A program made the position numbers and the translations under genes. This document shows positions 1,425-25,241 of a stretch of DNA of 39,645 bases, one piece after another. How positions within the stretch are numbered: the stretch's first letter is position 1; the number at the start of each line of letters is the position of its first letter. Source of the DNA: an uncultured Nitrososphaerota archaeon (GTDB taxonomy: Archaea > Korarchaeota > Korarchaeia > Korarchaeales > Korarchaeaceae); the NCBI GenBank assembly GCA_964594835.1, contig CAZQNA010000001.1, positions 257,089 to 296,733 on the forward strand, written 5' to 3'. The notes under the pieces were generated by a model. The model was given only the letters and a program-made list of their open reading frames with translations. It did not search any database and was not told where the DNA came from.

Positions 1425-1739
1425 ATGATAGACCCGTTCGTGGCGTTCTTCGTGGCGCTGATAGGGCTGACGATCTTCTTCACGGCCTCAGGCAAGTGGG
1501 CACCCTCGAGACCGTCCGAGATGAAGGAGGAGGTCTACGCCTGCGGTGAGAGAGGGGAGCCCCTCGAGGGTGGCGCCATAAGCATAAGCTTCTCCGAGTA
1601 CCTCGCGTACTTCGCCCTGCTGGAGATGGCCCCCCTCCTCCTCGCCCTCGCGGCCTTCTCCGGCGTCCTGAATCCGCTGATCCTCTTTGTGTACGCCATT
1701 CTCGCGGCGATAGCCAGCGCGATAGTCTCGTGGAGGTGA
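1425..1739 (+). CDS. NuoA-like membrane subunit of hydrogenase complex
   Basis: 104 aa, three hydrophobic segments, loop KEEVYACGE matching NuoA YECG; first gene of the operon. Confidence 0.8.
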   Translation: MIDPFVAFFVALIGLTIFFTASGKWAPSRPSEMKEEVYACGERGEPLEGGAISISFSEYLAYFALLEMAPLLLALAAFSGVLNPLILFVYAILAAIASAIVSWR

Positions 1740-2218
1740 TGGGCGTGAGCAGCGTGACGGAGAGGCTGGTGCCGTGGTGCAGGACCAGGTCCCCCTGGAT
1801 ACTCCACTTCAACTCCGGGGCGTGCAACGGATGCGACATAGAGCTCGTGGCCGCCCTGACCCCGAGGTACGACGTCGAGAGGTTTGGCATCCTCCTGAAG
1901 CCGTCCCCCAGGCACGCGGACATACTGGTGGTGACCGGCCCGGTCACGAGGCAGCAGAGGGAGAGGCTCGTCAGGATCTACGAGCAGATGCCGGAGCCCA
2001 AGGTGGTCGTGGCCCTGGGCGCCTGCGGGGGGAGCAGCGGGGTGTTCGCGGGCGGGTACTCCGTAGAGGACGGCGGGACCGACCGGGTGATCCCTGTGGA
2101 CGTGTACGTCCCTGGCTGCCCGCCCAAGCCCGAGGCCATAATCCTGGGGATTGCCAGGGCGATTGAGCTGCTGAGCCAGAAGGGCCTCAGAGGGGGAGGT
2201 GAGGGGGTTGAGCGGTGA
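1739..2218 (+). CDS. Group 4 [NiFe]-hydrogenase small subunit (NuoB/EchC/MbhJ-like)
   Basis: SGACNGCDIE (CxxC), PRHADIL, GACG, VPGCPPKPE. Start uncertain (1730/1739/1745). Confidence 0.93.
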   Translation: MGVSSVTERLVPWCRTRSPWILHFNSGACNGCDIELVAALTPRYDVERFGILLKPSPRHADILVVTGPVTRQQRERLVRIYEQMPEPKVVVALGACGGSSGVFAGGYSVEDGGTDRVIPVDVYVPGCPPKPEAIILGIARAIELLSQKGLRGGGEGVER

Positions 2219-2651
2219 GAGCCTGGCGGAGCTTGTCCCCTGGGCGGAGGAGGTCGTTGAGGAGAGGCGCGGGATGATCGGGATCAGGGTACCAAGGGAG
2301 AGGCTGAGGGACACGTTCTCCGCCCTGAAGCGGGCCTACGGAATGGTCCAGGTCTCCATGATAACGGGTACGGACATGGGGGACAGGTTCGAGCTGGCCT
2401 ACTTCGTCTGGCTCCACGTCCGCAAGCTGTACGTGGTCCTGAGGACCTCCTGCCCAAGGGACTCGCCCGAGGTCGACACGCTCGTTGACTTGATCCCCGG
2501 CATACACGTCTACGAGAACGAGGTGTACGACCTGCTGGGGGTGAACTTCAGGGGCAACGACGGACTGGTGAGCCCGTTCCTGAAGCCAGAGACCATGAGG
2601 CCCGACGAGTATCCGCTCAGGAGGGACTGGGGGAGGGGTGACGCGAAGTGA
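2199..2651 (+). CDS. NuoC-like subunit (EchD/MbhK-like)
   Basis: ITGTD, YENEVYDLLGVNFRG, YPLRRDW; start may be TTG 2208. Confidence 0.9.
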   Translation: MRGLSGESLAELVPWAEEVVEERRGMIGIRVPRERLRDTFSALKRAYGMVQVSMITGTDMGDRFELAYFVWLHVRKLYVVLRTSCPRDSPEVDTLVDLIPGIHVYENEVYDLLGVNFRGNDGLVSPFLKPETMRPDEYPLRRDWGRGDAK

Positions 2652-3811
2652 GAGTGGTGGTCCCGTTCGGCCCGCACCATCCGGCCCTGCACGAGCCGGA
2701 GCACTTCACCTTCGAGGTCGACGGCGAGGTCGTGGTGGCGGTGAGGCCCAGGATCGGATACGTCCACAGGGGGATCGAGAAGCTGGCCGAGGGCAAGACC
2801 TGGATCCAGAACCAGTACCTCGTCGAGAGGGTCTGCGGCATCTGCAACGTGTCCCACACCCTGTGCTACGTCGAGGCGGTCGAGGACCTGTCCGGACTGG
2901 AGCCCCCGAGGAGGGCGAGGTACCTGAGGCTGGTGGCCCACGAGCTCAACAGGCTCCACAGTCACCTGCTGTGGCTCGGCGTGATGGCCGAGCTGATGGG
3001 GTTCCACACGGTCTTCATGTACACCTGGAGGGACCGCGAGCTAGTCATGGACCTGATGGAGGAGCTCACTGGAAACAGGCTCCTCTCCGCTTACAACAAG
3101 GTGGGAGGAGTGTCCAGAGACGTCAGCGATGCCTTCGTCGGCAGCCTCCTGAGGGCGCTGGACAGGCTCGACGAGAGGTTCAGGTTCTACCTCCGCGTCG
3201 CCCAGGATGACCCGACGATCCTCGCGAGGACCCAGGGTGTGGGAACCCTCGACAGGGAGTCTGCAGTCAGGTACTGCGTCGTGGGCCCCGTGGCTAGGGC
3301 CTCCGGCCTCAGCTGGGACGTCAGGGTGGACAGGCCCTACGCCGCCTACGATGAGGTCCCCTACAGGATAGTCACCAGGACGGAGGGGGACGTCTGGGCC
3401 AGACTGATGGTGAGGGTGGAGGAGCTGCTTGCGGCCTCGGAGGCGATCAGGCACGCCGTCACCCACCTCCCCGAAGGCCCGATCAGGTACGCGGCACCGC
3501 GCAAGATGCCGGAGGGGGAGGGCGTCGGGGTGATAGAGGCCCCTAGGGGGGAGCTGCTGTATCACGTGATCAGCGACGGGAGGGACAGGCCGTACAGGCT
3601 GAAGATCAGGACTCCGACCCTCGCCAACATAACGGCCGCGTGCGAGGCCTTCGTCGGGAGCTCGATAGCCGACATACCGATGATCCTAGGGAGCATAGAC
3701 CCCTGCTTCTCCTGCATGGACAGGCTCGCGTTCGTGGACGTGTCCAGGGGCAGGAGGTGGATCATGACCCCGCTTGAGATCCAGAGGGAGTACGGGAGGT
3801 GGGTGAGTTGA
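2648..3811 (+). CDS. Group 4 [NiFe]-hydrogenase large subunit
   Basis: GPHHPAL, L1 motif ERVCGICNVSH, EAPRGE, L2 motif DPCFSCMDR followed by a C-terminal extension. Confidence 0.95.
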   Translation: MRVVVPFGPHHPALHEPEHFTFEVDGEVVVAVRPRIGYVHRGIEKLAEGKTWIQNQYLVERVCGICNVSHTLCYVEAVEDLSGLEPPRRARYLRLVAHELNRLHSHLLWLGVMAELMGFHTVFMYTWRDRELVMDLMEELTGNRLLSAYNKVGGVSRDVSDAFVGSLLRALDRLDERFRFYLRVAQDDPTILARTQGVGTLDRESAVRYCVVGPVARASGLSWDVRVDRPYAAYDEVPYRIVTRTEGDVWARLMVRVEELLAASEAIRHAVTHLPEGPIRYAAPRKMPEGEGVGVIEAPRGELLYHVISDGRDRPYRLKIRTPTLANITAACEAFVGSSIADIPMILGSIDPCFSCMDRLAFVDVSRGRRWIMTPLEIQREYGRWVS

Positions 3812-4791
3812 CGCTGGTCGAGGTGCTGACGCTCCTGTTCAAGCTGACCGTCTTCCCGGGATTCCTCTTCCTGTTCGTGGGGTCCCTGCTCACGGAGTGG
3901 TACAAGCGGAAGATCGTGGCGAGGATGGAGAACAGGATGGGCCCGGCCTACACGGGCCCGGCCGGCATGCTCCAGCCCCTCGCCGACTTCTTCAAGCTCC
4001 TGACTAAGGAGGAGATCATCCCAAGGGGGGCGGACGCGCTCGCCCTCAGGGCGGCCCCGCTCCTGACCTCGGCCTGCTTCATCTTCGCCCTCTACTTCAT
4101 CCCCGTCACGGGGCGGGCCCTGGTGGACCCGCCGGCGGGGCTCCTCATAGTCCTCCTGATAACGGCCATGGCCTCTGGCACCATGTACGCCATGGGGTGG
4201 GCCAGCGCCAACCCCTACGGCGCAATCGGCGCGGTGAGGGTCCTGTCCCAGGTCCTGGGGTTCGACATCCCCCTCTTCGTCCTGTCGCTCGTCCCGGCCC
4301 TCATCACGGGTAGCCTGTCTGTCACTGAGATCTCCAGCCGGATCCTTCCCACCCTGGCCGAGAGGCCGTGGCTGATCCCGCTCTGGCTTGCCTCGCTCGC
4401 CCTCTACCTGATCGCTATGCAGGGCGAGATAGAGGAGAATCCATTCAACATACCGGACGCGGAGCAGGAGATCGTCGCCGGCTACTTCACGGAGCTCAGC
4501 GGGAGGAACCTGGCGTTCTTCGACCTGGCCAGGGACTCTCAGTTCCTCTTCCTCTGCGCCATCGCCTCCACCCTGTACCTCGGGGGACCGCACCCGCTCT
4601 TGGACCCATACGGGATCTCAGCCGTGGCGCTGACCCTCGGCAAGACGCTCCTCGTCATAACGGTCTCCATGCTGATCAAGGCTACCAGCGCCAGGATCAG
4701 GCTCGATCAGGCGATCTCAAACTTCTGGAGGGTGGGTGTGCCCCTCTCGCTCCTGATACTGGCCGTGTCCGCTGTGGTGGGGGGTGCGTGA
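3808..4791 (+). CDS. NuoH-like membrane anchor (MbhM/EchB/HycD family)
   Basis: RKIVARMENRMGP, GMLQPLADFFKLLTKE, PFNIPDAEQEIVAGYFTELSG, RIRLDQ; TTG 3808 overlaps the upstream stop (alternative GTG 3799). Confidence 0.93.
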   Translation: MTLVEVLTLLFKLTVFPGFLFLFVGSLLTEWYKRKIVARMENRMGPAYTGPAGMLQPLADFFKLLTKEEIIPRGADALALRAAPLLTSACFIFALYFIPVTGRALVDPPAGLLIVLLITAMASGTMYAMGWASANPYGAIGAVRVLSQVLGFDIPLFVLSLVPALITGSLSVTEISSRILPTLAERPWLIPLWLASLALYLIAMQGEIEENPFNIPDAEQEIVAGYFTELSGRNLAFFDLARDSQFLFLCAIASTLYLGGPHPLLDPYGISAVALTLGKTLLVITVSMLIKATSARIRLDQAISNFWRVGVPLSLLILAVSAVVGGA

Positions 4792-4792
4792 G

Positions 4793-5248
4793 ATGGAGGT
4801 CCCGCGGCTGCTACGCGAGGTGTGCTCAAGCCTCTTCAGGAGGCCCGCGACCCTCCAGTACCCCATGGAGAGGAGGAGCCCGCCGCCCGGGTACAAGGGC
4901 GTCCACAGCCACCTCGCCGAGAGGTGCATAGGGTGCGGGCTTTGCGCCATCGACTGCCCCACGGGCGCCATAGAGATGGTGATGTACCCGGAGGCCAAGA
5001 GGAAGCTCCCCGTCGTACACCTGGAGAGGTGCATCTTCTGCTACCAGTGCGCCGAGTCCTGCCCTTACGACGCCTTCTCCCCCACCTCCCTCTTCGAGAT
5101 CGCCGTCAGGCTCGGAACCCCCGAGGAGGAGGCGCTAGTGGTCGCGCACCCCAAGGGCTCCGTGGGGCCCCTGAAGGAGAGGCCGAGGCCGAAGCCCCCG
5201 CTCCCGAGGCCCCCTGCGGGCGGGGCGGGAGGAGGTGAGAAGAGATGA
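4793..5248 (+). CDS. NuoI-like 2x[4Fe-4S] subunit
   Basis: TLQYP, CIGCGLCAIDCP and CIFCYQCAESCP; Pro/Gly-rich tail. Alternative start 4784. Confidence 0.93.
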   Translation: MEVPRLLREVCSSLFRRPATLQYPMERRSPPPGYKGVHSHLAERCIGCGLCAIDCPTGAIEMVMYPEAKRKLPVVHLERCIFCYQCAESCPYDAFSPTSLFEIAVRLGTPEEEALVVAHPKGSVGPLKERPRPKPPLPRPPAGGAGGGEKR

Positions 5249-5706
5249 CCCTGGTGGACGTCGTGGGGCTGGCCCTCGCGGTGGCCGGCTCGGGGCTCGC
5301 CATATACTCGCTCGAGAGCGTGAGCAACGTGAGGATAGTCTTCGCCGCGGCGGGGGCCCTCCTCTCCCTGTCCATAATGTACTGGGCGGTGGGCCTCTGG
5401 CCCCTTTCCCTCCTCCAGCTCGCCCTGGCAGCCTCGGACCTGGTCATCATAGCCCTCGGGTCCTCCACGCTCAACGAGGAGGTGAGGGCCTGGGAGAGGG
5501 GGTTCGCGGCGGCCATGGCCCTCCTGACTCTCACGATCCTCCTGCTCTCACTCCTTCCAACGGTGTCCGAGAGGGGGCCAGTCGCGAGGGTCATGATCCC
5601 GCTCTCACCGGAGATATCGCCGTACTTGCTGATGCACGGGCTCCTCCTGATCTCGGGGTCTCTCGCGCTCGCGGCCGCGCTGAGGCTGGGAGGTGAGGGT
5701 GAGTGA
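5245..5706 (+). CDS. Divergent NuoJ-like membrane subunit
   Basis: 153 aa, about five hydrophobic segments, positioned between the I- and K-like genes; motif conservation is weak (SLLQLAL aligns with NuoJ QxxVY). Confidence 0.65.
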   Translation: MTLVDVVGLALAVAGSGLAIYSLESVSNVRIVFAAAGALLSLSIMYWAVGLWPLSLLQLALAASDLVIIALGSSTLNEEVRAWERGFAAAMALLTLTILLLSLLPTVSERGPVARVMIPLSPEISPYLLMHGLLLISGSLALAAALRLGGEGE

Positions 5707-6014
5707 TACTGGAGGCCATCCTGTTCACCTCGATCGTGCTCATCAGCGCCGCGCTCTACGGGCTCATATCGAGGGACAACCCCGTCAAGCTGCTGGTGGC
5801 GTTTCAGCTCCTGGCGGCCGGGGGTGTGGGCGTCCTGGCCGCGCTCCTGGTGGGCTCCGAGAGCACGTTCTTCGTTCAGTCCGGTCAGACGCTCGCCGTG
5901 CTTCTGATAGCCACGGACCTCACGACGGAGGCCATACTGCTCGCGTCTCTCCTCACCATGGTCCGGAGGCTCGGGGTCAGGAGGCTGAACGAGCTGTCCA
6001 GCCTGAGGGGGTGA
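5703..6014 (+). CDS. NuoK-like membrane subunit
   Basis: 103 aa, three TM segments, LYGLISRDNPVKLLVAFQLL, TTEAIL and C-terminal LSSLRG typical of NuoK. Confidence 0.82.
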   Translation: MILEAILFTSIVLISAALYGLISRDNPVKLLVAFQLLAAGGVGVLAALLVGSESTFFVQSGQTLAVLLIATDLTTEAILLASLLTMVRRLGVRRLNELSSLRG

Positions 6015-7924
6015 TGGGCTTGAACCTCGGCGCGGCGTCCTGGATGTGCGTGCTGGTGCCCCTCGCGGCGTCTGGCGCTATCTTTGCGCTTGGGGCCATC
6101 GGACTCGCCAGGCGGAGGCTGGTCGAGGGAATCGCCTCAGGGGCGGCCCTGGCGGGGGCCAGCCTCGCGGCCTACCTGGCCGCCGCCTCGGCGGGCCTTG
6201 AGGGGCCCGTGACCTTCCCCGTGGATCTCGTGTCCCCAATCCTGACTCTGAACGGCCTCTTCAGCTTCCAGCTGTTTTTGGACCGCCTCTCAGCCGTGAT
6301 GACCTTCTTCGTCTCCGTGATCAGCGCGGCTATCGTGGTCTACTCGGTGGGCTACATGGGGGAGGACGAGGCCTACGTGAGGTACTACGGCCTGATGACG
6401 CTGTTCATAGGGTCCATGGTGGGGCTCGTGCTCTCGGGCAACCTCGTCCTGCTCTACCTGTTCTGGGAGGCCGTGGGGCTCTGCTCCTGCCTGCTCATCG
6501 CCCACTGGTGCGAGAGGCCCGAGGCCGCCAGGGCCGGGGTCAAGGCCTTCGCGGTCACCCGGTTCGGGGACTTCGCGCTGCTGACTGCGATATCGCTCCT
6601 CTACCTGAACCTGGGGTCTCTGGATTACCCGAGCCTCGCCGAGGGCATGGGCTCCCTCCCGCCCGGCCTCCTGAACCTCATACTCCTGCTGGCGCTGGGC
6701 GGCGCCGTGGGGAAGTCGGCCCAGCTCCCCCTGCACGTCTGGCTCCCGGACGCCATGGAGGGACCCACCTCCGTGAGCGCCCTCATCCACGCGGCCACCA
6801 TGGTGAAGGCCGGCGTCTACCTGGTGGCCAGGTTCGACGCGCTAGCGATTCTGTACGGAGGCGTCGCGGTCGACGCCATCTCCGGGTTCCTGAACGCGGT
6901 CCTCCTCGTCGGGTCCGTGACGGCCCTGGTCGCGGCGACGATGGCCGTCGTCGCCTACGACCTGAAGAGGGTGCTGGCCTACTCCACCATAAGCCAGCTG
7001 GGCTACATGTTCTCTGCCGTCGGCCTGACGCTGTACGCCGGGGCTCAGAGATCGCTCTGGTCCGCGCTCTACCACCTGACGAGCCACGCGGTCTTCAAGG
7101 CCCTCCTGTTCATGGCCGCCGGGGCGGTGATACACGCCGTCGGGACCAGGGACATGAGGGTGATGGGCGGGCTGGCGGACAGGATGCCCCTGACATTCCT
7201 GGGGTTCACCCTGGGCTCGCTGTCCCTGGCCGGGGTACCTCCGCTCAACGGCTTCTTCAGCAAGGACGCGGTGGTCGGCCTCGCGCTGGAGGCGGTCCAC
7301 GAGGCCCCCCTGCCGGCCGCGCTCCTCCTGGGAGGGGCGGCCATGACCGCCTTCTACATACTGAGGGCCCTCTACTTGACCTTCCTCGCCCCGCCCGGAG
7401 AGGCCTCGGGGCGCGCACACGAGGCCCCGATCACCATGACCGGGCCGGTGGCGTTCCTGACCCTCCTCACCCTCCTCTCCCCCGCCCTCTACGGGGCCCT
7501 CGCCGGTGGGGCCGAGGGGGTGAGGCACGCCCTCCACTTCACCCCGGCGCACGCTGCCGCATCGCTGTCGGCCGTTGGCTTGGGAATCTCGCTGGCCCTC
7601 GCGGCCTACTGGGCCAGGACAGGACCTTTGATGGCCGTCGCCGATACCTCCGTCGGCAGGGCGGTCAGGGAGGTCCTGGAGCGCGGCTACTACTTCGACG
7701 ACCTGTACGCCAACTTCCTGGTGCCCATAGTTAGGGGCCTGGCCCAGGAGCTGCTCGCCGGGCTGGACATGGCCATCGATGGCCTCGTCCAGATGGCGGG
7801 GGTCGGGGCGGGCAGGACGGCCGACCTCCTCAGGAGGGCCCACACCGGGAGGCTGACCCACTTCTTCGCCGCTTCCGTTCTGGGGATTCTCCTTCTCCTG
7901 ATAGCGTCCGTGCTGGGAGGTTGA
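6014..7924 (+). CDS. NuoL-like antiporter subunit with lateral helix
   Basis: ATG 6014 overlaps the upstream TGA; WEAVGLCS, TRFGD, GKSAQLPLHVWLPDAMEGPTSVSALIHAATMV, HAVFKALLF, GFFSKD, C-terminal GYYFDDLY..IDG..HTG. The N-terminal part of ORF 5693 is a shadow extension. Confidence 0.93.
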   Translation: MGLNLGAASWMCVLVPLAASGAIFALGAIGLARRRLVEGIASGAALAGASLAAYLAAASAGLEGPVTFPVDLVSPILTLNGLFSFQLFLDRLSAVMTFFVSVISAAIVVYSVGYMGEDEAYVRYYGLMTLFIGSMVGLVLSGNLVLLYLFWEAVGLCSCLLIAHWCERPEAARAGVKAFAVTRFGDFALLTAISLLYLNLGSLDYPSLAEGMGSLPPGLLNLILLLALGGAVGKSAQLPLHVWLPDAMEGPTSVSALIHAATMVKAGVYLVARFDALAILYGGVAVDAISGFLNAVLLVGSVTALVAATMAVVAYDLKRVLAYSTISQLGYMFSAVGLTLYAGAQRSLWSALYHLTSHAVFKALLFMAAGAVIHAVGTRDMRVMGGLADRMPLTFLGFTLGSLSLAGVPPLNGFFSKDAVVGLALEAVHEAPLPAALLLGGAAMTAFYILRALYLTFLAPPGEASGRAHEAPITMTGPVAFLTLLTLLSPALYGALAGGAEGVRHALHFTPAHAAASLSAVGLGISLALAAYWARTGPLMAVADTSVGRAVREVLERGYYFDDLYANFLVPIVRGLAQELLAGLDMAIDGLVQMAGVGAGRTADLLRRAHTGRLTHFFAASVLGILLLLIASVLGG

Positions 7925-7930: not shown

Positions 7931-9445
7931 TTGGATCCGGCGACTGTGGTGTTCACCTCGTTCTTCACGCTCTCGGCGCTGACGGTCTTCGCCGGTAGGC
8001 TCCTCGGGGCGAGGGCGCAGAGGGCAGCCTGGGTGACCGCCGCCCACCTCCCGGGGTACTACTCGGTCTACCAGGTGTGGAGGGGGGTCACCTCCTCCCC
8101 CGACCACGTGTTCAGCATGAGGCCGCTGGGCGTGGAGGGGCTCATGGCCGCCGACGCCTTCAGCTCATTCATGGCCCTCGTGGCAGTCTTCGGCTCCCAC
8201 ATGCTCATGTCCTACGCCGCCGCCACGATCGACGATCCCGACGCCTTCTCGAGGTTCGCGGCCGCCGGGCTGGCGGGGACCGGCGCCGTAGTGTCGACGT
8301 TCTACTCCGTGAACCTCCTGGCCCTGACGATCCTGTGGGAGGCCACCGTCGCCGCCGAGGTGGGGATGATCCTCATTGGAAGGGGCGAGGGGGTCGTCGA
8401 GGCGGCGGTGAAGGTGTCGGCGATGGCGATGTTCTCCTCCCTGCTCATGGTTACTGGACTCGGACTCCTCTTCGCAGCGCTGGGGAACGTCGGGGTCACG
8501 CTCAACTCCTTCAACATACCGTGGGTCGCCAGCCACGTTCCCCTGGCGTACAGAGGATCGGAGATAGTGATACTGATAGCCTTCGCCCTGCTCGTGGCTT
8601 CCCTCGGCATCGAGGTCGGGGCGGCTCCGTTCTACATGTGGCTCCCGGACATGTACTCCGGGGCCTGGCCGGAGGCCGTCTCGCTCGTCGTCACCACCGT
8701 GGACCTGGGCGGACTCTATTTGCTCGCGAGGATCACCGGGATGTTCGCGCGCCTGCCGGTGTCCAGGGTGGTCGCCCTGGGCGGCCTCACGCCCCTGCTC
8801 CTGGCCTTGGTCATCCTCTCCCTGTTCTCAATGACGCTCGGAGAGCTCTCAGCCCTCGGACAGACGATGGTAAGGAGGATTCTGAGCTACAGCGCCGTCG
8901 CAGACGCCGGGTACGTCCTGCTCCTCTCGACCTACTTCTTCTGGGGAGGGGTCGTCCCCTTCGGTTGGGCGGCCTACTCGGCACAGCCCCTCGCGTACTT
9001 CGTGGTGGCCAGCAACCTCTCCATATCCGCGGCCGTCGCGGCCGTGGGCTATCTAGAGCGGAGGATGGGCGGCTCGGACCTCGAGTCCTTCAGGGGGGCC
9101 GCGAGGTATCACCCGCTGGCGTCGGTGCTCCTCGCCATGTCCCTCCTCTCCCTCTTCGGCGTTCCCCCCATGGCCGGCTTCGTGGCGAAGTTCCTGGTCG
9201 TCTCCGCCCTCGTGACGGCGCCTATACCCGCGATGCTCTGGGTGGCGGCGGTGGCCACGGTGTTCTTCGTGGTGAGCGCCGCGTACGGCATGAAGGTCAT
9301 AGGGACCTGCGCGCGGGAGAGGGACACCCCTCCACCGGCCGCGGAGGGGGACTGGGTGCCGCTGCTTCCAATAGCGCTCATAGTCGTGCTTCTGGTGTTG
9401 ATAGGGGTGGATCCATCGCTCCTCCTGTCCGTGTTCGCGAGGTGA
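7931..9445 (+). CDS. NuoN-like antiporter subunit with atypical charged residues
   Basis: LWE, GAAPFYMWLPDMYSGA, RRILSYS, LSLFGVPPMAGFVAKF. Confidence 0.85.
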   Translation: MDPATVVFTSFFTLSALTVFAGRLLGARAQRAAWVTAAHLPGYYSVYQVWRGVTSSPDHVFSMRPLGVEGLMAADAFSSFMALVAVFGSHMLMSYAAATIDDPDAFSRFAAAGLAGTGAVVSTFYSVNLLALTILWEATVAAEVGMILIGRGEGVVEAAVKVSAMAMFSSLLMVTGLGLLFAALGNVGVTLNSFNIPWVASHVPLAYRGSEIVILIAFALLVASLGIEVGAAPFYMWLPDMYSGAWPEAVSLVVTTVDLGGLYLLARITGMFARLPVSRVVALGGLTPLLLALVILSLFSMTLGELSALGQTMVRRILSYSAVADAGYVLLLSTYFFWGGVVPFGWAAYSAQPLAYFVVASNLSISAAVAAVGYLERRMGGSDLESFRGAARYHPLASVLLAMSLLSLFGVPPMAGFVAKFLVVSALVTAPIPAMLWVAAVATVFFVVSAAYGMKVIGTCARERDTPPPAAEGDWVPLLPIALIVVLLVLIGVDPSLLLSVFAR

Positions 9446-10984: not shown

Positions 10985-11006
10985 GCCCACCTTCCCACTA
11001 TTTTTC
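10985..11006 (+). terminator. Putative terminator of operon 1
   Basis: GCCCACCTTCCCACTATTTTTC just after the last stop codon. Confidence 0.55.
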
Positions 11007-12045: not shown

Positions 12046-12544
12046 GCAGGGTCAGGGAGGAGTCGAGGCAGCGCCCCTCGGGGAACTTGAGGCCCTCCTC
12101 AGCGAGGTGCTGGAGGGCCTGTCACCCGAGATATCGGCTGTCGGGGGAGCGGTGGCGGTCAAAGTGCCTCCTGACCGCCTCAAAGAGGCCGCGGAGAGGC
12201 TAAGGGGCGCGGGCTTCGACCACGTCAAGGCGGTCACGGGCATAGACCGGCCAGACTCGGGTGAGATCGAACTCGTCTACCACGTGTCATCCTACCTCGA
12301 TCCAAGGCTGTCGAAGTGCATCGTCGCCCTGAGGACCACCCTGCCGCGGGACGATCCGGTGACTCCCTCTCTGTACGAGGTGTGGCCCAGCGTGAAGTAC
12401 CACGAGATGGAGCAGATGGAGATGCTCGGCATCCAGTTCTCGGGTCACCCGGACCCGAGGAGGCTGCTCCTGCCCGAGAGCTACGAGGGCATCCCCCCGC
12501 TCAGGAAGGACTTCAAGGTGAAGGTGGAGGGGATCAACGCATGA
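12020..12544 (+). CDS. nuoC: Complex I-like oxidoreductase subunit C
   Basis: VTGID, EMEQMEMLGIQFSGHPDPRRLLLPE, PLRKDF; exact start uncertain. Confidence 0.92.
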   Translation: MRPLASKSEQGQGGVEAAPLGELEALLSEVLEGLSPEISAVGGAVAVKVPPDRLKEAAERLRGAGFDHVKAVTGIDRPDSGEIELVYHVSSYLDPRLSKCIVALRTTLPRDDPVTPSLYEVWPSVKYHEMEQMEMLGIQFSGHPDPRRLLLPESYEGIPPLRKDFKVKVEGINA

Positions 12545-13710: not shown

Positions 13711-14732
13711 TGATCTCGCTGGGTTGGGTGCTGGATCTCCTGCTCTCCCCCTGGCTCTTCGTGCCCCTGATATATCCCGGGCTGATCTCGGCCTTCGCAG
13801 TCCTCCTGTTCATAATCTGGTTCGAGAGAAAGCTCGCCGCGAAGGTTCAGCTCCGCTACGGTCCGCTTTACGTCCTTAAGCAGCTCGGGGGCGCCATACA
13901 GCTGGTGGCGGACCTCCTGAGGTATCTGTTCGCGGAGCCCATCGTCCCGGACCGGGCCGACAGGCTGGCCTTCATCTTCGGCCCCATCCTCCTGTTCGCC
14001 TCCTCCTACATTGCGACCGTCGCCATACCGGTGAGCTACAACTTCTACGCGTTCAGGAGCGAGATCTCCCTCCTGGTGGTGTTGGGGCTCACGACCCTGG
14101 CGCCGGCGTTCAACCTGGTGATAGGGTGGGGCAGCAACAACAAGTTCGGCCTGATAGGCGGCCTCAGAGAGGGCTACCTGATAACGGCGGACGAGATACC
14201 CATATTCGTCTCGGCCCTGGCCATGGCCGTCCTCTACGGCACCATGGACCTCGTCAGGATGGTCGAACTCCAGTCGGAGTGGCTCTGGGGGATAGCCCTG
14301 AACCCGCTGGCCGCCCTGACCTTCTTCGTCCTGATGCTCCTGTCGACGTCCAGGTTCCCGTTCGAGATAGTGGAGGCGGAGAGCGAGATAGTCATGGGCC
14401 CGTTCACGGAGTACAGCGGGATCCTGTACGGCCTGACCATGGGCGCCTCCTACGTGAAGCTCTACGTGCTGAGCCTCCTCTTCGCGATACTGTTCCTCGG
14501 AGGGTGGGAGCCCGTCCCGCCCCTGGAGTTCCCGGGGAGCTGGCTGATCCTGCCGGCCGCAGTGCTCTTCCTGAAGGCCCTCGTGATAATGTGCCTCTCC
14601 GTCTTCATGAGGGCGGTCTACCCGCGCTACAGGATCGACCACGCCCTGAGGCTGGCCTGGCACTACCTCTTCCCGGCCTCCATAGCGTCGGTGTTCCTGT
14701 CCCTCGCGGTGCTGGTGGGGTGGTGGCTATGA
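13707..14732 (+). CDS. nuoH: Complex I-like oxidoreductase subunit H
   Basis: ERKLAAKVQLRYGP, QLVAD, RFPFEIVEAESEIVMGPFTEYSG, PRYRID. Confidence 0.94.
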   Translation: MMISLGWVLDLLLSPWLFVPLIYPGLISAFAVLLFIIWFERKLAAKVQLRYGPLYVLKQLGGAIQLVADLLRYLFAEPIVPDRADRLAFIFGPILLFASSYIATVAIPVSYNFYAFRSEISLLVVLGLTTLAPAFNLVIGWGSNNKFGLIGGLREGYLITADEIPIFVSALAMAVLYGTMDLVRMVELQSEWLWGIALNPLAALTFFVLMLLSTSRFPFEIVEAESEIVMGPFTEYSGILYGLTMGASYVKLYVLSLLFAILFLGGWEPVPPLEFPGSWLILPAAVLFLKALVIMCLSVFMRAVYPRYRIDHALRLAWHYLFPASIASVFLSLAVLVGWWL

Positions 14733-15259
14733 GTTCCAAGAGGTGGGAATCCCCGATCTTCAGGCTCAAGGGACACCTGGAGGCCATACTCACCGGCGCT
14801 AAGTACCTGGTGACGCCCAGGGCGACGGTGAGGTACCCGGAGGAGGTGATCGAGCTCCCGGAGGGCTACAGGGGATACATCGCCTACAAGAAGGAGCTGT
14901 GCATCAGCTGCGGCCTCTGCGCCACGGTGTGCCCGGCGAACGCCATGAAGATGTACCTGGAGGAGGCTCCCCAGGCCCCTGAGGGAGGGGAGGGAGGGGC
15001 GAAGCCCAAGCCCAAGAGGCACCCCGGGATAAACTACACCAGGTGCATATTCTGCGGCTTCTGCGTGGATGTCTGCCCCACCGGAGCCCTGGAGCACGTT
15101 GAGACCCACGACGTGGCCTACGAGGAGTTCGACTCCATGATCTACCCGCCCCCGGACTTCGAGGCCGGTCCGCCCAGCTCCGAGTTCGAGAGGCCTCCCA
15201 GTCGGCTGAGGCCCAAGATGGATGAGAGGAGGGGGATCGCGTATGAGCCTGCCGATTGA
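14729..15259 (+). CDS. nuoI: Complex I-like oxidoreductase subunit I
   Basis: ATG 14729 overlaps the nuoH stop; TVRYPEE, CISCGLCATVCP, CIFCGFCVDVCPTGAL. Confidence 0.94.
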   Translation: MSSKRWESPIFRLKGHLEAILTGAKYLVTPRATVRYPEEVIELPEGYRGYIAYKKELCISCGLCATVCPANAMKMYLEEAPQAPEGGEGGAKPKPKRHPGINYTRCIFCGFCVDVCPTGALEHVETHDVAYEEFDSMIYPPPDFEAGPPSSEFERPPSRLRPKMDERRGIAYEPAD

Positions 15260-15731
15260 CCTCACGTCCCTGGCCTTCCTGGCCACCTCTGCCCTGGCGG
15301 TGGCCTCCGCCGTGCTGGTGGTGGGCCACAGGTCGCTGGTCTACGCGGCGTTCTTCCTGGACATTCTGGGTACCGCGAACGCCGTCTTCTTCGCCCTGCT
15401 GGGGTATCCCCTCGTCGCCGTCTTCCAGCTCACCGTTTACGTGGGGTCCGCGGTCACGTTCATCCTGTTCTCCGTGGTTATGCTGAAAGAGGTTCCCGAG
15501 ACCACGGTCCCGATCAGGGAGTTCGCGGCCTTCACTGTGGTGCTCACGGCCGCGGCCCTGCTGGTGGCGTTCAACCAGTTCTCCGGGATACTCCCCCAGA
15601 CCCAGGCCATAGACATGGGGGAACTCACCAGGCTCGTCGTCGACAAGTACTGGTTCGCCCTGCTCCTATCCATCCTCTCAATGGCCACGACGCTCATAGA
15701 GGCGATCACGCTGGCCAGGAGGGAGGTGTGA
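15243..15731 (+). CDS. nuoJ: Complex I-like oxidoreductase subunit J
   Basis: LVYAAFFL, FQLTVYVGSAVTFILFSVVM; five TM segments. Confidence 0.9.
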   Translation: MSLPIDLTSLAFLATSALAVASAVLVVGHRSLVYAAFFLDILGTANAVFFALLGYPLVAVFQLTVYVGSAVTFILFSVVMLKEVPETTVPIREFAAFTVVLTAAALLVAFNQFSGILPQTQAIDMGELTRLVVDKYWFALLLSILSMATTLIEAITLARREV

Positions 15732-15734: not shown

Positions 15735-16043
15735 ATGCCCACGATCTACTGGTACCTCCTCGTGTCCTTCGCCCTGGCCGGGATAGGGCTCTACGGAATG
15801 CTCACCAGGAGAAACCTGATCAGAATGCTGATCTCGGTGGAGCTCATCTTCAACGGAGCCCTGCTGGCCCTCCTCAGTCTCACATCCATCTCCGCGGCCT
15901 ACAAACCCACCGGCGTCGTCCTGGCGCTGCTCGCCATATCGCTGGCGTCCGCGGAGGTCGGAGTCGTGGTCTCGATCGCGATCCTCATGTTCCGGGTCAA
16001 GAGGAGCCTGGACGTTTTCGAGATTGCCGAGTCTAGGGGGTGA
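15735..16043 (+). CDS. nuoK: Complex I-like oxidoreductase subunit K
   Basis: RRNLIRMLISVELIFNG and LASAEVGV; both conserved Glu present. Confidence 0.93.
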   Translation: MPTIYWYLLVSFALAGIGLYGMLTRRNLIRMLISVELIFNGALLALLSLTSISAAYKPTGVVLALLAISLASAEVGVVVSIAILMFRVKRSLDVFEIAESRG

Positions 16044-17587
16044 GTTTTGTGGTTCTGGAGCAGCCGTACATGTTCTATGCCGTGCTGATCCCGATCCTGG
16101 GATCCCTGATCCTGCCCCTCTTTGAGGACTCTCTGGGCGGCAGGGGAATAGCCGCGCTAGCGACGGCCCTGCTGGCGATTCCGGCGCTGCTCACGGGGTA
16201 CCTCGTCGCCGCGGCGGGGGTCAACGAGCCCATAGCCGACCCGGCGTTCTTCCAGGCCGACTCCATAGGGTCCTTCAGCATGCTCCTCGACTCGCTCAGC
16301 GCGCCCCTGGCCATATCCATAGGCCTGGTCACCACCCTGATCTCCGCGTACTCCTGGAGATACATGCAGCACAGGTTCGAGGAGTTCGAGGCCGAGGGGG
16401 AGACTCCGCCGGGCTGGGGCATCTACTACATGCTCTTCGTCATGTTCGCCGCGGCGATGATGGGGACGGTCCTGTCGACCAACCTCGTGGAGTTCTACCT
16501 CTTCCTGGAGGTATCGCTCCTGCCGAGCTTCCTACTGATAGCCTTCTACGGCTACGGCAACAGGGAGAGGATAGCCATCCTCTACCTGATCTGGACCCAC
16601 GTCGGGGCCCTGGTGTTCCTGGTGGGGGCGCTGATAGTGGGCCTGAACGCCGGGACCTTCGACTACTACGACCCGATCAGGCTGGCCCCGATGTCGGGGC
16701 TCGGTCAGCTCGTGCCGACCTCCATGAGGATGCCCGTGGTCGTGGCCCTCTGCGTGGGGCTCTTCGTGAAGCTGGCGATATTTGGCGTCCACATATGGCT
16801 GCCGTACGCCCACGCCGAGGCTCCGACGCCCGTGTCGGCCCTCCTTTCGCCCAACCTCATAGGCATAGCCGCCTACGCGCTCGTGAGGATCGTGTACACG
16901 CTCTTCCCATTTGAGTTCGCGGCCCTGACCCCCTACACGCTCCCCCTCGCCCTGTTCACCATAATCTACGGCGGCCTGATGGCCCTGGCGCAGGACGACT
17001 TCAAGCGCCTGCTCGCGTACTCGAGCGTCTCTCAGATGGGGTACCTCCTGGCCGGGGTCTCGACGCTGACCGCCGCAGGCGTGGCGGGCGCGATGATCCA
17101 CTACACTGCCCACGCCGTGGGAAAGGCCCTCCTGTTCGCCACCGCGGGCGTGCTCATCTCCCAGCTCCACGGTCTCAGGAGCATAAGCAAGATGGGCGGA
17201 CTGGCCACGAAGATGCCCCTCACGGCGTCCCTGGCCCTGATAGGGTTCATGCACATCACAGGGATCCCGCCGTCCCTCGGCCTGTGGAGCGAGATCCTCA
17301 TAGTGATGGGGATCTCGGGCACGACGGTCGGCAGGTCCACCCTGTACTTCGTGGCCCTCCTGGCGGTGCTGCTCGTCGGCATCGGGCTCTCGACGGCCTA
17401 CGCATTCCTCACCATGAAGAGGATATTCTTTGGGGAGCCCTCGGAGGCGGCCAAGGAGGCCAGGGAGGCAGGGGCGGGCCTCCTCGGGCCCATGATCGTG
17501 ATAGCCGCGGTGGGCATAGTCCTCTTCGTCTGGCCCAGACCACTCATCGATCCGCTGATGGCGTCGCTGCGGGTCCTGCTAGGGTGA
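16040..17587 (+). CDS. nuoM: Complex I-like oxidoreductase subunit M
   Basis: FYLFLEVSLLP, VKLAIFGVHIWLPYAHAEAPTPVS, KRLLAYSSVSQMG, GLWSE. Confidence 0.92.
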   Translation: MSFVVLEQPYMFYAVLIPILGSLILPLFEDSLGGRGIAALATALLAIPALLTGYLVAAAGVNEPIADPAFFQADSIGSFSMLLDSLSAPLAISIGLVTTLISAYSWRYMQHRFEEFEAEGETPPGWGIYYMLFVMFAAAMMGTVLSTNLVEFYLFLEVSLLPSFLLIAFYGYGNRERIAILYLIWTHVGALVFLVGALIVGLNAGTFDYYDPIRLAPMSGLGQLVPTSMRMPVVVALCVGLFVKLAIFGVHIWLPYAHAEAPTPVSALLSPNLIGIAAYALVRIVYTLFPFEFAALTPYTLPLALFTIIYGGLMALAQDDFKRLLAYSSVSQMGYLLAGVSTLTAAGVAGAMIHYTAHAVGKALLFATAGVLISQLHGLRSISKMGGLATKMPLTASLALIGFMHITGIPPSLGLWSEILIVMGISGTTVGRSTLYFVALLAVLLVGIGLSTAYAFLTMKRIFFGEPSEAAKEAREAGAGLLGPMIVIAAVGIVLFVWPRPLIDPLMASLRVLLG

Positions 17588-17601: not shown

Positions 17602-19722
17602 ATGGAGTTCGCTCAGACGATGGCCGTCGTCGCTTGGGCCCTGCCGTACTTTGGCGCTCTGCTGTCTCTGGCCCTATCGAGGCTAGGCAGGCTGAGGGAC
17701 TACGTGGCGGCCTCGATGCTCGGCCTCTCAGCGATATCCACCACCCTCCTGGCGAAGGAGGTGTTCGCCGGTTCGGGGCTCGTCGCGTGGTCCGCCGACT
17801 GGGTCCCGGGGATGGGGGTGAGCCTCGGCGTCTACGTCGACACCCTGTCGGCGGCTGTGTCCCTCGTCGTCGCGTGGCTCTGCTTCCTCATAGGAGTCTA
17901 CAGCCTAGAGTACATGGCCCACGACCCCGGGCGGACCAGGTACTGGTTCTTCTTCGACTTCTTCGTCGGGAGCATGCTCCTGCTCGTGATGGCCGAGAAC
18001 CTGCTCATCATGTTCCTCGGGTGGGAGGGCACCGGCCTCGCGTCCTACGCCCTGATAGGCCACTGGTACACGGACGAGCAGGAGAGGTGGGTGGGCGACC
18101 CGGGCCGGACGGCCCTGGGGGTCCCGATGTGGTTCCCGCCCAGCCACAGCGGCCTCAGGGCGCTGACCTTCACCAGGCTAGGAGACGTGGGCTTCCTCCT
18201 CGGGATAGGCGTCCTCTACTCCCTCACCGGCACGTTCAGCATCCCCGAGATAGCGCACTCCGCGGGCTCCTGGGCCGCGTGGCTCGCCGCGAGGGGGCTC
18301 CTGCTGCCCTTCCTCATAGCCTTCTCCCTGGGGGCCATGGCCAAGAGCGCCCAGTTCCCGTTCCACGAGTGGCTCGTGACCGCCATGACCGGCCCCACCT
18401 CCGTGAGCGCCCTCATCCACGCGGCCACCATGGTCAAGGCGGGGGTGTACTTCTTGCTCAGGTTTGCGCCCATATTCAAGCTGGCGGAGCACGAGCTGAT
18501 TCACACTCTGCCCGCCGGGGCCGAGGCGATCCACGCCTACTTCACATTCATAACGCTGATCGGGGCCTTCACGGCCTTCTTCATGGCCACCCAGGCCCTC
18601 GTCGCCAGGGAGCTGAAGCTGATACTCGCGTTCTCCACGGCCTCCCAGCTGGGGTACATGTTCACGGCCCTCGGCAGCTCGGGTCTGATGGAGGAGCTCG
18701 CCGGGGGGATACTCGCAGGTTTCTCCCACTTCATGAGCCACGCGGTGTTCAAGGCCGCCCTGTTCCTTGGGGCGGGGGCCGTAATACACGCGGTCCACTC
18801 CAAGTACGTGGACGACATGGGCGGCCTGGCGGGGCACATGAGGTACACCCTCTCCGCCATGCTCGTGACGGCCCTCAGCCTGGCGGGCGTCCCCCCGCTG
18901 ATGGGGTTCTGGAGCAAGGACTCCGTGGTCGAGGCCGCCTACGAGTCTGGGGTCGGCCTCGCGTTCGCCCTGGCCGTGATCACCGCGGGACTCACCGCCT
19001 TCTACTCCACCAGGCTCGTTCTCAGGACCTTCTTCTTCGAGGAGTCCGACAACGTCAGGCACCTGGAGCGCGAGCACAGGCTCCACGAGGCGCACCCGCT
19101 GATGCTGGTCCCGTACCTGGCGTTGGCGCTGGTGACCCTCGCCCTGGGGCTGGCCTGGCCGGCCGTCGGACCAGAGGTGCTCGGCAAGGTGGCCAGCAAC
19201 GTCCTCGCCCTCGAGGAGGCCCCGCACGTCGAGGTCCACCTCAACCCGTTCCTCCTGGGGGTGAGCCTGCCCCTGGTCTTCGGTGGGATAGGGGTGGGGT
19301 GGTTCGCCTACCAGACCCCCTCCGGGAGGAGGCTCCTGGTCGCCATGGGGGAGTCTGGACCGCTCTCCGCCGTACGCGAGTTCCTCTACGACAGGTGGTA
19401 CATCAACAGCATCTACTACCGAGTGATCGTCGGAGGGTTCGCCTGGCTCTCCAGGAACGGATACAGGTACTTCGACAGCCTCGTGATCGACGGGTTCTAC
19501 CACAGGCTGATACCCGGCTCGACCTGGGAGGCGAGCTCGGTGGGGTGGAGGTTCGAGAAGGGCGTCGTCGACAGGGGTTACCACGAGGAGCTGGTCTCGG
19601 CGGTGCTGAGGATCGGGAGCACCCTCAGGAGATCGCAGACCGGGCTGATCAATCACTACCTCCTGATCTTCTTCGGCGGGCTGGCCGCGCTGTTCCTGGC
19701 CTTTCTGATATGGGTGGTGTGA
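17602..19722 (+). CDS. nuoL: Complex I-like oxidoreductase subunit L
   Basis: GWEGTGLASYALIGHWY, TRLGD, KSAQFPFHEWLVTAMTGPTSVSALIHAATMV, GFWSKD, long C-terminal lateral helix ending QTG. Confidence 0.94.
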   Translation: MEFAQTMAVVAWALPYFGALLSLALSRLGRLRDYVAASMLGLSAISTTLLAKEVFAGSGLVAWSADWVPGMGVSLGVYVDTLSAAVSLVVAWLCFLIGVYSLEYMAHDPGRTRYWFFFDFFVGSMLLLVMAENLLIMFLGWEGTGLASYALIGHWYTDEQERWVGDPGRTALGVPMWFPPSHSGLRALTFTRLGDVGFLLGIGVLYSLTGTFSIPEIAHSAGSWAAWLAARGLLLPFLIAFSLGAMAKSAQFPFHEWLVTAMTGPTSVSALIHAATMVKAGVYFLLRFAPIFKLAEHELIHTLPAGAEAIHAYFTFITLIGAFTAFFMATQALVARELKLILAFSTASQLGYMFTALGSSGLMEELAGGILAGFSHFMSHAVFKAALFLGAGAVIHAVHSKYVDDMGGLAGHMRYTLSAMLVTALSLAGVPPLMGFWSKDSVVEAAYESGVGLAFALAVITAGLTAFYSTRLVLRTFFFEESDNVRHLEREHRLHEAHPLMLVPYLALALVTLALGLAWPAVGPEVLGKVASNVLALEEAPHVEVHLNPFLLGVSLPLVFGGIGVGWFAYQTPSGRRLLVAMGESGPLSAVREFLYDRWYINSIYYRVIVGGFAWLSRNGYRYFDSLVIDGFYHRLIPGSTWEASSVGWRFEKGVVDRGYHEELVSAVLRIGSTLRRSQTGLINHYLLIFFGGLAALFLAFLIWVV

Positions 19723-19725
19723 GTC

Positions 19726-21177
19726 ATGCTGGACCCAGTGGAACTCTTCGAGTCTCTGATGGTCCTGCTGGTCATCCCCGGGCTCCTCATACCGCTGGCC
19801 GACAGAGGAGGGGGCAGTGAGGATCACGGGCGGTACGGCCTGCTCGGGTACCTCAGCGTCGCGGTGCTCGTAGCGGCCCTCGCCATGTCCGTCACCCTCG
19901 CCCTCGAGCTCTCCTCGATACCCAAGGGGGTCTTCGCGTTTGAGGACACCCTCCTCCTCCACAGATATCCAGCCTACCTGGCGGCCCTGGTATCCCTGGG
20001 AACCCTGCTGGTCGCCGTCTCCTCGCTGCCGGAGGTGAGGAACTGGCCGACGGCCCCGAGCTTCTACTCTCTCCTGCTGCTCACCCTAGCGGGCGTCGTG
20101 GCGATCCTCTTCGTGTCGGACATGGCCACCCTGCTCTCGGCGTGGACCCTGGTGGCCGTCGCCTCCTACGTCGTCGTTGGCCTGAGGAAGGACGCTAGCT
20201 CCCTGGAGGGCGCCGCCAAGTACGGCCTCATGGGCGCCGCCTCGTCGTCGCTCATGGTGTTCGGAGTGGCCATCCTCGTGGGCCTCACGGGCACGAGCTT
20301 CCTCCCGGACTCCATCAAGATCTCCGGGTTCCAGATGAACCTCATACTCCTGACCCTCATACTGCTCATCGCCTCCTTCGGTTTCAAGCTCGGCATCTTC
20401 CCCTTCCACGGGTGGCTCCCCGACGTCTACGGCGGCGTGCACCCGCTGCTCGTCTCATACATCGCGGGAGTAGTCAAGATGGCGGCCATAGCCGGGATAC
20501 TCCGGATGGTCGTCCCGCTGGTCAGCTCCACGGGTCCCCAGAACTGGCTCCACATATTCGGCCTCCTGGCGGTCCTGACCATGACCTACGGCAATCTTGT
20601 CGCCCTGGTCCAGAGGAACGTCCAGAGGATCATGGCCTACAGCAGCATAGCCCACGCCGGGTACCTCCTCGTCGGCTTCGCCGCCGTCTCGGACTCAGTG
20701 AGCAGGATAACGGGGCTCCAGGGCGTGGCCCTCCACCTGACTGCCTACGTGCTGGCCAAGGTGGGCATATTCGTCGGTCTCGCCTACATGCTGAGGAGGG
20801 GGCTCGGCACCACGCTGGAGGACATGAGCGGGGTCGGGAGGAGGATGCCGGTCCTCTCGCTCGGCATGACGGTGCTCATACTGAGCCTGATGGGGATGCC
20901 GCCGCTCCTGGGGTTCTGGAGCAAGTTCACCTACCTCTTCCTCTCGGTGGTCGACACCGCGCCGTGGCTGGCCCTGATAGCGGTGCTGAACAGCGGGATC
21001 TCGGTCGGATACTACGCCCAGATCATCCGCTACATGTTCTTCAAGGAGGGGGGCGAGGGACGCCCCGCCGAGAGGGCGACCGACCCCGAGGTGATCGCCG
21101 TCCTAGCGGCAGCCGCCCTCACGGTGGCGATGGGCCTCGGGCTGGCCCAGCCTCTGGCGAGCCTCTTCGGGCCCTGA
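19726..21177 (+). CDS. nuoN: Complex I-like oxidoreductase subunit N
   Basis: EGAAKY, FKLGIFPFHGWLPDVYGG, AYSSIAHAGY, GMPPLLGFWSKF. Confidence 0.93.
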   Translation: MLDPVELFESLMVLLVIPGLLIPLADRGGGSEDHGRYGLLGYLSVAVLVAALAMSVTLALELSSIPKGVFAFEDTLLLHRYPAYLAALVSLGTLLVAVSSLPEVRNWPTAPSFYSLLLLTLAGVVAILFVSDMATLLSAWTLVAVASYVVVGLRKDASSLEGAAKYGLMGAASSSLMVFGVAILVGLTGTSFLPDSIKISGFQMNLILLTLILLIASFGFKLGIFPFHGWLPDVYGGVHPLLVSYIAGVVKMAAIAGILRMVVPLVSSTGPQNWLHIFGLLAVLTMTYGNLVALVQRNVQRIMAYSSIAHAGYLLVGFAAVSDSVSRITGLQGVALHLTAYVLAKVGIFVGLAYMLRRGLGTTLEDMSGVGRRMPVLSLGMTVLILSLMGMPPLLGFWSKFTYLFLSVVDTAPWLALIAVLNSGISVGYYAQIIRYMFFKEGGEGRPAERATDPEVIAVLAAAALTVAMGLGLAQPLASLFGP

Positions 21178-25240: not shown

Positions 25241-25241
25241 C

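Follow-up and report, generated by a model that had tools for sequence, protein, structure and literature searches.

The 39,645-nt stretch of DNA analysed here (the window) forms the end of contig C1 of G000, the 1.82 Mb, 97% complete genome of an uncultured archaeon of the Korarchaeaceae (assembly GCA_964594835.1). On one strand it carries two operons of eleven genes whose products resemble complex I. Judged by ligands and gene content, operon 1 (hfo, 1425-10975) encodes an Hfo-like group 4g [NiFe] hydrogenase, and operon 2 (nuo, 11150-21177) encodes the complex I-like enzyme of 11 subunits found family-wide, which has no nickel site and is not the MBS of Thermococcales. We propose, with a probability of roughly 0.58, that the two enzymes would be parallel outlets for reduced ferredoxin, operon 1 leading to H2 and operon 2 to a menaquinone-type carrier with Psr-like or other reductases downstream. 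The proposal builds on features observed directly: gene content and ligands, the separate ancestry of the two operons, a promoter-like element conserved before nuoA and an inventory of the genome. Other genomes and loci are designated by G and L numbers.

The earlier note on this DNA had described two 11-gene operons only 174 nt apart, one with and one without a NiFe site, and coordinates, family scans and ligands confirmed this. The gap between the two same-strand runs is exactly 174 nt, while genes within both runs are separated by -26 to +14 nt. In the family scans, hycI followed by ABCDHIJKLNM was found for operon 1 and ABCDHIJKMLN for operon 2. Operon 1 follows Fpo and Nuo through ABCDHIJK and then runs L-N-M; nine of its 11 subunits are firmly assigned, and A and J were assigned by position, helix count and weak scores. 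The protease gene hycI (770-1246) is part of the hydrogenase unit and lies outside the span of 1425..21177 that had been noted. Operon 1 is without an Mbh-type Na+ module. Operon 2 has the full ABCDHIJKLMN set, without an input module and without NiFe ligands. The claim that neither operon encodes NuoEFG or FpoF held: NuoF (PF01512) and FrhB/FpoF (PF04432) gave zero matches in the genome, and NuoE and NuoG were not searched separately. A genome-wide tblastn found no third Nuo-like operon in G000.

The catalytic subunits differ at the nickel site. D1, the product of hfoD, contains RVCGICNVSH (2828-2857) and DPCFSCMDR (3698-3724), with all four Cys ligands, while D2, the product of nuoD, reads ERPPLADT and DYFPPEADR at the same places, with zero Cys. 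The L1 and L2 motifs of D1 fit those of Loh et al. (2021, PMC7886697); D1 also has a 28-residue C-terminal tail, and its Glu16 aligns with MbhL E21. When the top 120 homologues of each subunit were taken, both NiFe motifs were present in 117/120 for D1 and either motif in 0/120 for D2. The small subunits agree with this division, B1 having the hydrogenase-type CNGC and B2 a tandem CC as in complex I; in a Thermococcales genome, MbsJ reads CTGC. The best solved relatives of D2 are Thermus Nqo4 (280 bits), a fungal 49 kDa subunit and MbsL (273 bits). D2 is without MbsL C85/C385 and shares a C-terminal PPxxDR with MbsL. NuoL, NuoM and NuoN of operon 2 have the canonical E/K/K charges, except that NuoN2 reads WT, not WE, at the helix 5 Glu.

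The two operons have separate ancestries. A quick SH-aLRT (approximate likelihood-ratio) tree of 86 rows separates D1 from D2 by a 100/100 split, and homologous subunits of the two operons are 30-42% identical. Since D1 and D2 share 41.5% identity and belong to different deep clades, they are not products of a tandem duplication; the different gene order also rules this out. A recent foreign insertion was rejected as well, the third-position GC content of operon 1 (0.85-0.91) fitting that of the genome (0.88 +/- 0.04). The closest relatives of D1 are three korarchaeal-type sequences (87-93%), and beyond those come Thermoprotei and Nezhaarchaeales (56-59%). D1 fell near 4g-type sequences of the TACK clade, in equally quick trees that held no named 4g-6 reference and had backbone support of 82-89. 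The nearest named relatives of D2 are a Korarchaeota protein (80%) and K. cryptofilum NuoD (70%). A PF00346 match was obtained in 31/35 other family genomes, and among the loci cut out, 11 genomes of the family and 3 from further away had the D2 type. Of 43 phylum genomes, 4 (G000, G014, G017 and G030) were found to have a complete NiFe group 4 large subunit, a count for which the D2-like partial matches of other genomes were not all cut out. In G038 (L093 10118-12178) and G039 (L095 11667-13723), a divergent large subunit that resembles group 4 but has neither NiFe motif is encoded on the opposite strand, 3-5 kb upstream of nuoA; in G039 a MenA-like gene stands between the two.

Each enzyme belongs to a known kind, and the novelty lies in the recurrence of the pair, in the revised korarchaeal annotation and in the acidic residues of the N subunit. 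Hfo was defined as the Fpo-like 11-subunit group 4g-6 [NiFe] hydrogenase of Bathyarchaeia (PMC7886697). Like Hfo, operon 1 specifies 11 Nuo-like subunits with L1 and L2 motifs, without the Mbh Na+ module and with NuoF/FpoF unmatched, and D1 is ~52% identical to bathyarchaeal large subunits. Unlike Hfo, it has the order L-N-M and an acidic N, stands beside a non-NiFe complex and would probably run towards H2 evolution; D1 groups weakly (86) with Thermoprotei, Nezhaarchaeales and Methanodesulfokora, not with Bathyarchaeia. A korarchaeal 11-subunit complex I was listed by Moparthi and Hägerhäll (2011, PMC3144371), and a preprint by Tahon treats the korarchaeal complex as a ferredoxin-oxidising Nuo. 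Compared with archaeal 11-subunit complex I, including Nuo of K. cryptofilum and the Fpo-like enzymes of Methanothrix and Methanomassiliicoccales, operon 2 has the same gene set, the CC motif and no NiFe ligands, and itself shows no difference. Vulcano et al. (2023, PMC10667645, Fig. S5) drew two Nuo-like loci in Kg_12 and Kg_14 and called all such loci group 4g hydrogenases. There the family-wide locus was named a [NiFe] hydrogenase via HydDB, whereas here the ligands occur in 0/120 homologues; the text covered is silent on adjacency. Group 4 hydrogenases have been reported to be patchy in Korarchaeota (PMC12787533). No description of the tandem or of a doubly acidic N subunit was found in the literature searched, a scope that left genome papers and some supplements outside.

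These results correct the published view that a group 4g hydrogenase is present in all Korarchaeia, the locus they have in common being one without nickel ligands. They also bring together, in a single membrane, a true non-NiFe 11-subunit complex and a hydrogenase resembling Hfo, which has been put forward as the nearest link from hydrogenases to complex I; the pairing is repeated in a cultivable family, the Thermofilaceae. An uptake hydrogenase, a Psr-like reductase and quinone-type enzymes point to respiratory capacity in a group usually called fermenters.

The earlier note had compared the pair to MBH and MBS of Thermococcales. In both cases a NiFe and a non-NiFe relative of complex I, predicted in the korarchaeal case too to be fed by ferredoxin, occur in one cell (Yu et al. 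2020, PMC7684303), and MbsH resembles HfoN in having a Glu in helix 7 (E219). In detail the analogy failed. The korarchaeal pair has adjacent operons and complex I-type architecture, without the Mrp Na+ module, the MbsJ CxxC, the MbsL Cys residues or SurR. The best match in G000 to a relative of PF0095, used as the SurR query, had an E value of 1.8e-4 (166 aa) and was not an orthologue. SurR binds GTTn3AAC, and no such site occurs within 220 nt of hfoA or nuoA. A palindrome shared by the hfoA, psrA and fdhA promoters, GTTA-N4-TAAC, was discarded as chance, with 42 intergenic matches versus 43 expected. Reciprocal regulation without SurR is possible.

Misassembly at the junction was ruled out. 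A contig of run X1 covers 8240-13500 and one of run X2 covers 10882-11095 (both may be source runs), and the same join occurs in the congener G002, in which nuoA follows the 3' end of hfoM at a contig end, and in L149, where hfoM (82%) is followed by nuoABCDH. The terminator-like tract and TATA box that had been noted in the spacer are both present, CCACTATTTTT at 10995 and TGTTAAAATGTTTTATAAT at 11103-11121. The promoter-like TGTTAAAATGTTTTATA, ~30 nt 5' of nuoA, is invariant in five sequences (G000, G002, G003, G004 and L149). Because it is the same whatever stands upstream, operon 2 likely has its own promoter. A scan for sigma-70 promoters and hairpins returned 2 promoters versus 2.3 expected and none at the junction, using a bacterial-type model that is uninformative for an archaeon. 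A repeat search found coding paralogy only.

Adjacency, whose lack of conservation in relatives the earlier note had named as a refutation, gave a mixed result, being conserved in some relatives and not in others. It was seen in G002, L149 and four Thermofilaceae. In G004 the upstream gene is joined directly to nuoA and the hydrogenase is absent, giving an empty site; in G003 the usual upstream neighbours precede nuoA and an hfoL-N-M piece stands on another contig, of 1,960 bp. The operons are not linked in G014 and G017, which protein matches assign to Methanodesulfokora; within the limits of their contigs, both genomes show the same gene order. G001, in which both operons are missing except nuoN at a contig start, is broken here and uninformative. 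Since G000 and G004 are sisters in the tree, with G002/G003 branching outside them, it is probable that the genus ancestor had the cassette and that G004 lost it. The tandem occurs in both branches of the deepest genus split, with identities to G002/G003 of 72-82% for hfo and 66-91% for nuo. Near-identical 19-20 nt C-rich/T tracts (727-745 and 10986-11005) stand on both sides of the hydrogenase cassette and could be terminators and a substrate for deletion. Two of the three genome copies of the 11-mer CCACTATTTTT flank the cassette; a similar tract is found at 12/1794 genes, and the pair may be a generic terminator.

A hydrogenase-nuo tandem was also found in 4/4 Thermofilaceae genomes checked (G138, G144, G192 and G246; L229-L236), whose NuoD proteins are 80-100% identical to proteins named Thermofilum or Infirmifilum. 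As in the window, a NiFe group 4 operon with an acidic N-like subunit stands directly before an orthologous nuoABCDHIJKMLN, across a spacer of ~50-160 nt, the NiFe large subunit lying 8 kb upstream of the D2-type gene. Unlike in the window, its order is B, C+D (fused in one frame), I, H, J, K, L, N, with no A or M gene found, and the hydrogenase clusters at 99 with enzymes of Bathyarchaeia and Nitrososphaerales, apart from D1. Because the hydrogenase belongs to another clade than D1, it is likely that the tandem had two origins or that one of the partners was exchanged. All four genomes have NrfD-family genes. They came from a survey in which 17 genomes were hand-picked for several strong matches from 201 genomes of the phylum Thermoproteota, among the matches listed, and 5 others; the pick yields no frequency. 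In the other 13/17 no pair of NuoD-type and hydrogenase genes was seen within 15 kb, the hydrogenase-type pair of G061 not being cut out. At L023 (9905-10165), a contig ends with a nuoA-like gene a short way past a group 4 hydrogenase operon of bacterial origin, which may be a further tandem.

The third antiporter-like subunit of operon 1 is unusual. In HfoN, Glu228, Asp258 and Asp325 replace the Lys, Lys and His of NuoN2 and of solved NuoN/NdhB, with Glu137 and Lys420 retained. HfoL and HfoM retain the helix 5 Glu and helix 7 Lys. The acidic pattern was also found in G003, G014, G017 and a thorarchaeal locus, and the N subunits of the Thermofilaceae (4/4) have Glu at helices 7 and 8. Of 113 HfoN homologues, 81 could be parsed, giving 74 with Lys and 7 with Glu, the 7 being the best matches. 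A helix 7 acid was present in 24/222 antiporter frames of the loci collected, a biased set, and 23 of the 24 belong to hydrogenase loci. In many archaeal group 4 hydrogenases the NuoN-like helix 7 and 8 lysines are acids, often together with the helix 10 His; acidic NuoN-like loci are window 7931-9445, L085, L087, L100, L063, L009-L051 and L229-L235.

Such an acidic axis is possibly a Na+ site or a silenced pump, and the acids may lower the ion stoichiometry of the hydrogenase. Ferredoxin to H2 supports ~1-2 ions per two electrons, and ferredoxin to menaquinone ~4-5. A silenced or Na+-type third pump would fit the small ferredoxin-to-H2 gap, across which fewer protons would be pumped. However, a single acid need not mean lost pumping, because MbsH, with Glu at helix 7 (E219) and the helix 8 Lys retained, is a proposed proton pump (PMC7684303). 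The acids in HfoN give a concrete explanation, open to mutagenesis, for how a chassis with three pumps could run the low-energy H2 reaction. A further reading, which we consider rather unlikely, is that Korarchaeota and Thermofilaceae independently built the same switchable module, in which a group 4 hydrogenase, its charge-reversed N subunit serving as a Na+ path or silenced pump matched to that small gap, would stand directly before a full four-proton complex I under a regulator other than SurR. If so, the transition from hydrogenase to complex I and its ion stoichiometry could be tested in one cell, in cultivable Thermofilaceae.

The genome inventory fits the two-outlet reading, which the earlier note had also favoured, in its many donors, in the lack of another H2-evolving hydrogenase among those found and in its quinone-type enzymes. 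There are 16 genes for ferredoxin-linked oxidoreductases, 10 of the AOR family and 6 of the POR/IOR family, plus CooS. The only other NiFe enzyme in G000 is a group 1 hydrogenase with a small subunit of the Tat (twin-arginine translocation) type, HybA and NrfD; [FeFe] hydrogenase gave no match in G000. HypA, C, D, E and F and an ApbC-like ATPase are encoded. The quinone-synthesis and terminal-reductase genes that the note had proposed to list include a MenA-like prenyltransferase (5/5 genus genomes; directly before nuoA in G039), a formate dehydrogenase (Fdh) with NrfD, PsrABC-like proteins (best PDB match 2vpw), Sdh/Frd and a Rieske/cytochrome b pair. COX1 was not found in G000, and G004 carries broken COX1 fragments. 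HdrA/MvhD/HdrB genes and two GlcD+GlcF/HdrD-like pairs are also present. A PF02621 match considered as MqnA/D was instead an ABC (ATP-binding cassette) binding protein.

H2 evolution and ion translocation by operon 1 and quinone reduction by operon 2 are predicted from these genes. In the proposed scheme, peptide and aldehyde oxidation (AOR, POR/IOR, CooS) would load ferredoxin, which would dock on the I and B subunits because no NuoF or FpoF was found. With an external acceptor present, the nuo complex would pass electrons to a membrane carrier, which would be re-oxidised by the PsrABC-like enzyme, by Frd or by the Rieske/cytochrome b pair. With no acceptor, the hydrogenase would be the sole H2-evolving route found, and the outward-facing group 1 enzyme could recapture evolved H2. 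The nuo operon would be the inherited core and the hydrogenase an accessory cassette, equipped with a protease and a promoter of its own, that some congeners have lost or relocated.

Several results weigh against this scheme. G003, G014 and G017 carry both operons unlinked, and a CC-type nuoB was found at 0/80 nearest D1 loci of GTDB, where the B matches read CxxC in 69/69 and 45 loci extend 9 kb downstream. A shared regulatory motif was not found. The MenA-like gene scores below its cut-off, and MenB and MqnC were absent from searches of all 5 genus genomes; menaquinone would therefore need a scavenged head group. Among the 43 phylum genomes, the MenA query matched in 20, NrfD in 18 and the PsrA query in 10, so the nuo operon persists in many relatives without these matches (e.g. 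in G013). At the quinone ligands, D2 has Leu for Nqo4 Y87 and a loop His one place off H38. Finally, Hfo was argued to run from H2 to ferredoxin in Bathyarchaeia (Loh et al., PMC7886697).

The unlinked operons, together with the missing hydrogenase of G004, raise the possibility, which we consider real but somewhat unlikely, that adjacency is incidental: a cassette gained in an energy-gene neighbourhood, with the operons regulated independently. This concerns position only and is compatible with the chemistry of the parallel outlets. Each operon would have its own promoter, G048 and G055 likewise contain group 4 operons in tandem, and the nearest outside relatives of D1 are Thermoprotei and Nezhaarchaeales. 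Nevertheless, the tandem spans the deepest genus split with hfo and nuo diverged alike, and it recurs with a different hydrogenase clade in 4/4 Thermofilaceae.

The altered quinone ligands of D2 bear on a second alternative, namely that operon 2 reduces a disulfide instead of quinone, either heterodisulfide via HdrD/GlcD-like partners or polysulfide at the proximal cluster as in MBS; the two-outlet logic would still stand. Y87 and H38 are lacking as in MbsL, which is the third-best PDB match of D2 (273 versus 280 bits for Nqo4), has PPxxDR in common with it and has cysteines that are dispensable for catalysis (PMC7684303). The genome has two GlcD+GlcF/HdrD-like pairs, an Fpo-HdrD/GlcD link was proposed for Korarchaeia (Vulcano et al. 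2023, PMC10667645), and the de novo menaquinone markers MenB and MqnC were not found. We believe this to be unlikely, however. B2 has the complex I CC and not the MbsJ CxxC that leaves an open iron; the Tyr-less D2 type is common to the TACK clade, including G045, an aerobe with a heme-copper oxidase (COX1); and three NrfD-anchored enzymes, Sdh/Frd and the Rieske/cytochrome b pair require a membrane carrier.

It is more improbable still that the hydrogenase runs in reverse, from H2 to ferredoxin and powered by the ion gradient, whether to serve biosynthesis or to act in series with operon 2. The three antiporter-like subunits would give the driving force, given the ~1-2 ions per two electrons above, and the direction is that proposed for bathyarchaeal Hfo (PMC7886697). 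Yet one of the three pumps is without its lysines, and the 16 ferredoxin-reducing oxidoreductase genes and CooS mean that sinks are needed. The series route (H2 to ferredoxin to acceptor), offered as an alternative in the earlier note, is less likely because H2 is already coupled to the membrane pool through the group 1 uptake hydrogenase; the route would spend the gradient to regain it. Shared parts or a single supercomplex, the hydrogenase borrowing NuoA/NuoM or swapping catalytic arms, are highly improbable: the subunits are homologous (30-42%) and the Thermofilaceae hydrogenase operon directly before nuoA showed no A or M gene, but both window operons carry full membrane-subunit sets of their own, the identities are too low for exchange to be expected, and close relatives of the Thermofilaceae hydrogenase likewise have only two antiporter genes, without a nuo operon nearby.

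All features of the tandem are on the + strand. A terminator-like C-rich/T-tract element 3' of the upstream gene (727..745), which shares CCACTATTTTT with the tract after hfoM, is followed by hycI (770..1246; hydrogenase maturation protease, PF01750 and TIGR00072 over cut-off) and an AT-rich putative promoter region of the hydrogenase operon (1247..1424, 38% GC). NuoA-like hfoA (1425..1739) is weakly assigned, with 31% identity to nuoA2 (E 4e-4), 3 predicted helices and no Pfam match. It is followed by hfoB (1730..2218; PF01058, small subunit with CNGC), hfoC (2199..2651; PF00329), hfoD (2648..3811; PF00346 and PF00374, group 4 large subunit with L1 and L2, best PDB matches MbhL and HycE), hfoH (3799..4791; PF00146) and hfoI (4793..5248; PF00037, predicted 2x[4Fe-4S]). 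NuoJ-like hfoJ (5245..5706) is likewise weakly assigned, by position and 5 predicted helices without a Pfam hit; hhalign gave E 0.0012 (probability 19.5), Atlas gave PF00499 as a lead, and direct BLAST against nuoJ2 was negative. The remaining genes are hfoK (5703..6014; PF00420 slightly below cut-off) and three antiporter-like genes, hfoL (6014..7924; canonical charges, TIGR01974 over cut-off), hfoN (7931..9445; the acidic subunit described above) and hfoM (9458..10975; TIGR01972 over cut-off). By eye, HfoK has Gln at the first conserved NuoK Glu, which the G014 and G017 orthologues retain.

After hfoM, a C-rich/T5 tract (10986..11005) is predicted from its sequence pattern to be terminator-like and precedes the BRE/TATA-like nuoA promoter (11103..11121). 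Operon 2 consists of nuoA (11150..11536; NF004729 over cut-off), nuoB (11533..12045; TIGR01957, tandem CC), nuoC (12020..12544; PF00329), nuoD (12541..13710; without NiFe ligands, Nqo4 Y87, an in-register H38 or MbsL C85/C385), nuoH (13710..14732; NF004741 over cut-off), nuoI (14729..15259; family match), nuoJ (15243..15731; PF00499), nuoK (15735..16043; PF00420, both conserved Glu present), nuoM (16040..17587; TIGR01972), nuoL (17602..19722; TIGR01974) and nuoN (19726..21177; canonical Lys/Lys/His by family match and alignment).

Other loci for energy metabolism were recorded in G000. At C1:7234-26457, hypF, hypD, a protease, the group 1 NiFe hydrogenase with HybA and NrfD, hypA/C/E and fdhD are clustered with a 1214-aa Tat formate dehydrogenase, its iron-sulfur (FeS) and NrfD partners and fdhE. 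The PsrABC-like molybdoenzyme (C1:172198-178679) is encoded with a chaperone and a divergent polyferredoxin and is 92-93% identical in G001 and G004. The Rieske and cytochrome b pair faces the Sdh/Frd operon at C6:110017-114933, and heme O synthase is encoded at C7:55466-56323. At C15:19931-27683, CooF-CooS-CooC are followed by HdrA, MvhD-FeS and HdrB-like genes. Just downstream of the tandem, window 23303-30884 contains two AOR-family genes, an FeS partner, ThiS, a flavoprotein disulfide reductase and a nitroreductase, in a gene order that is kept in G001.

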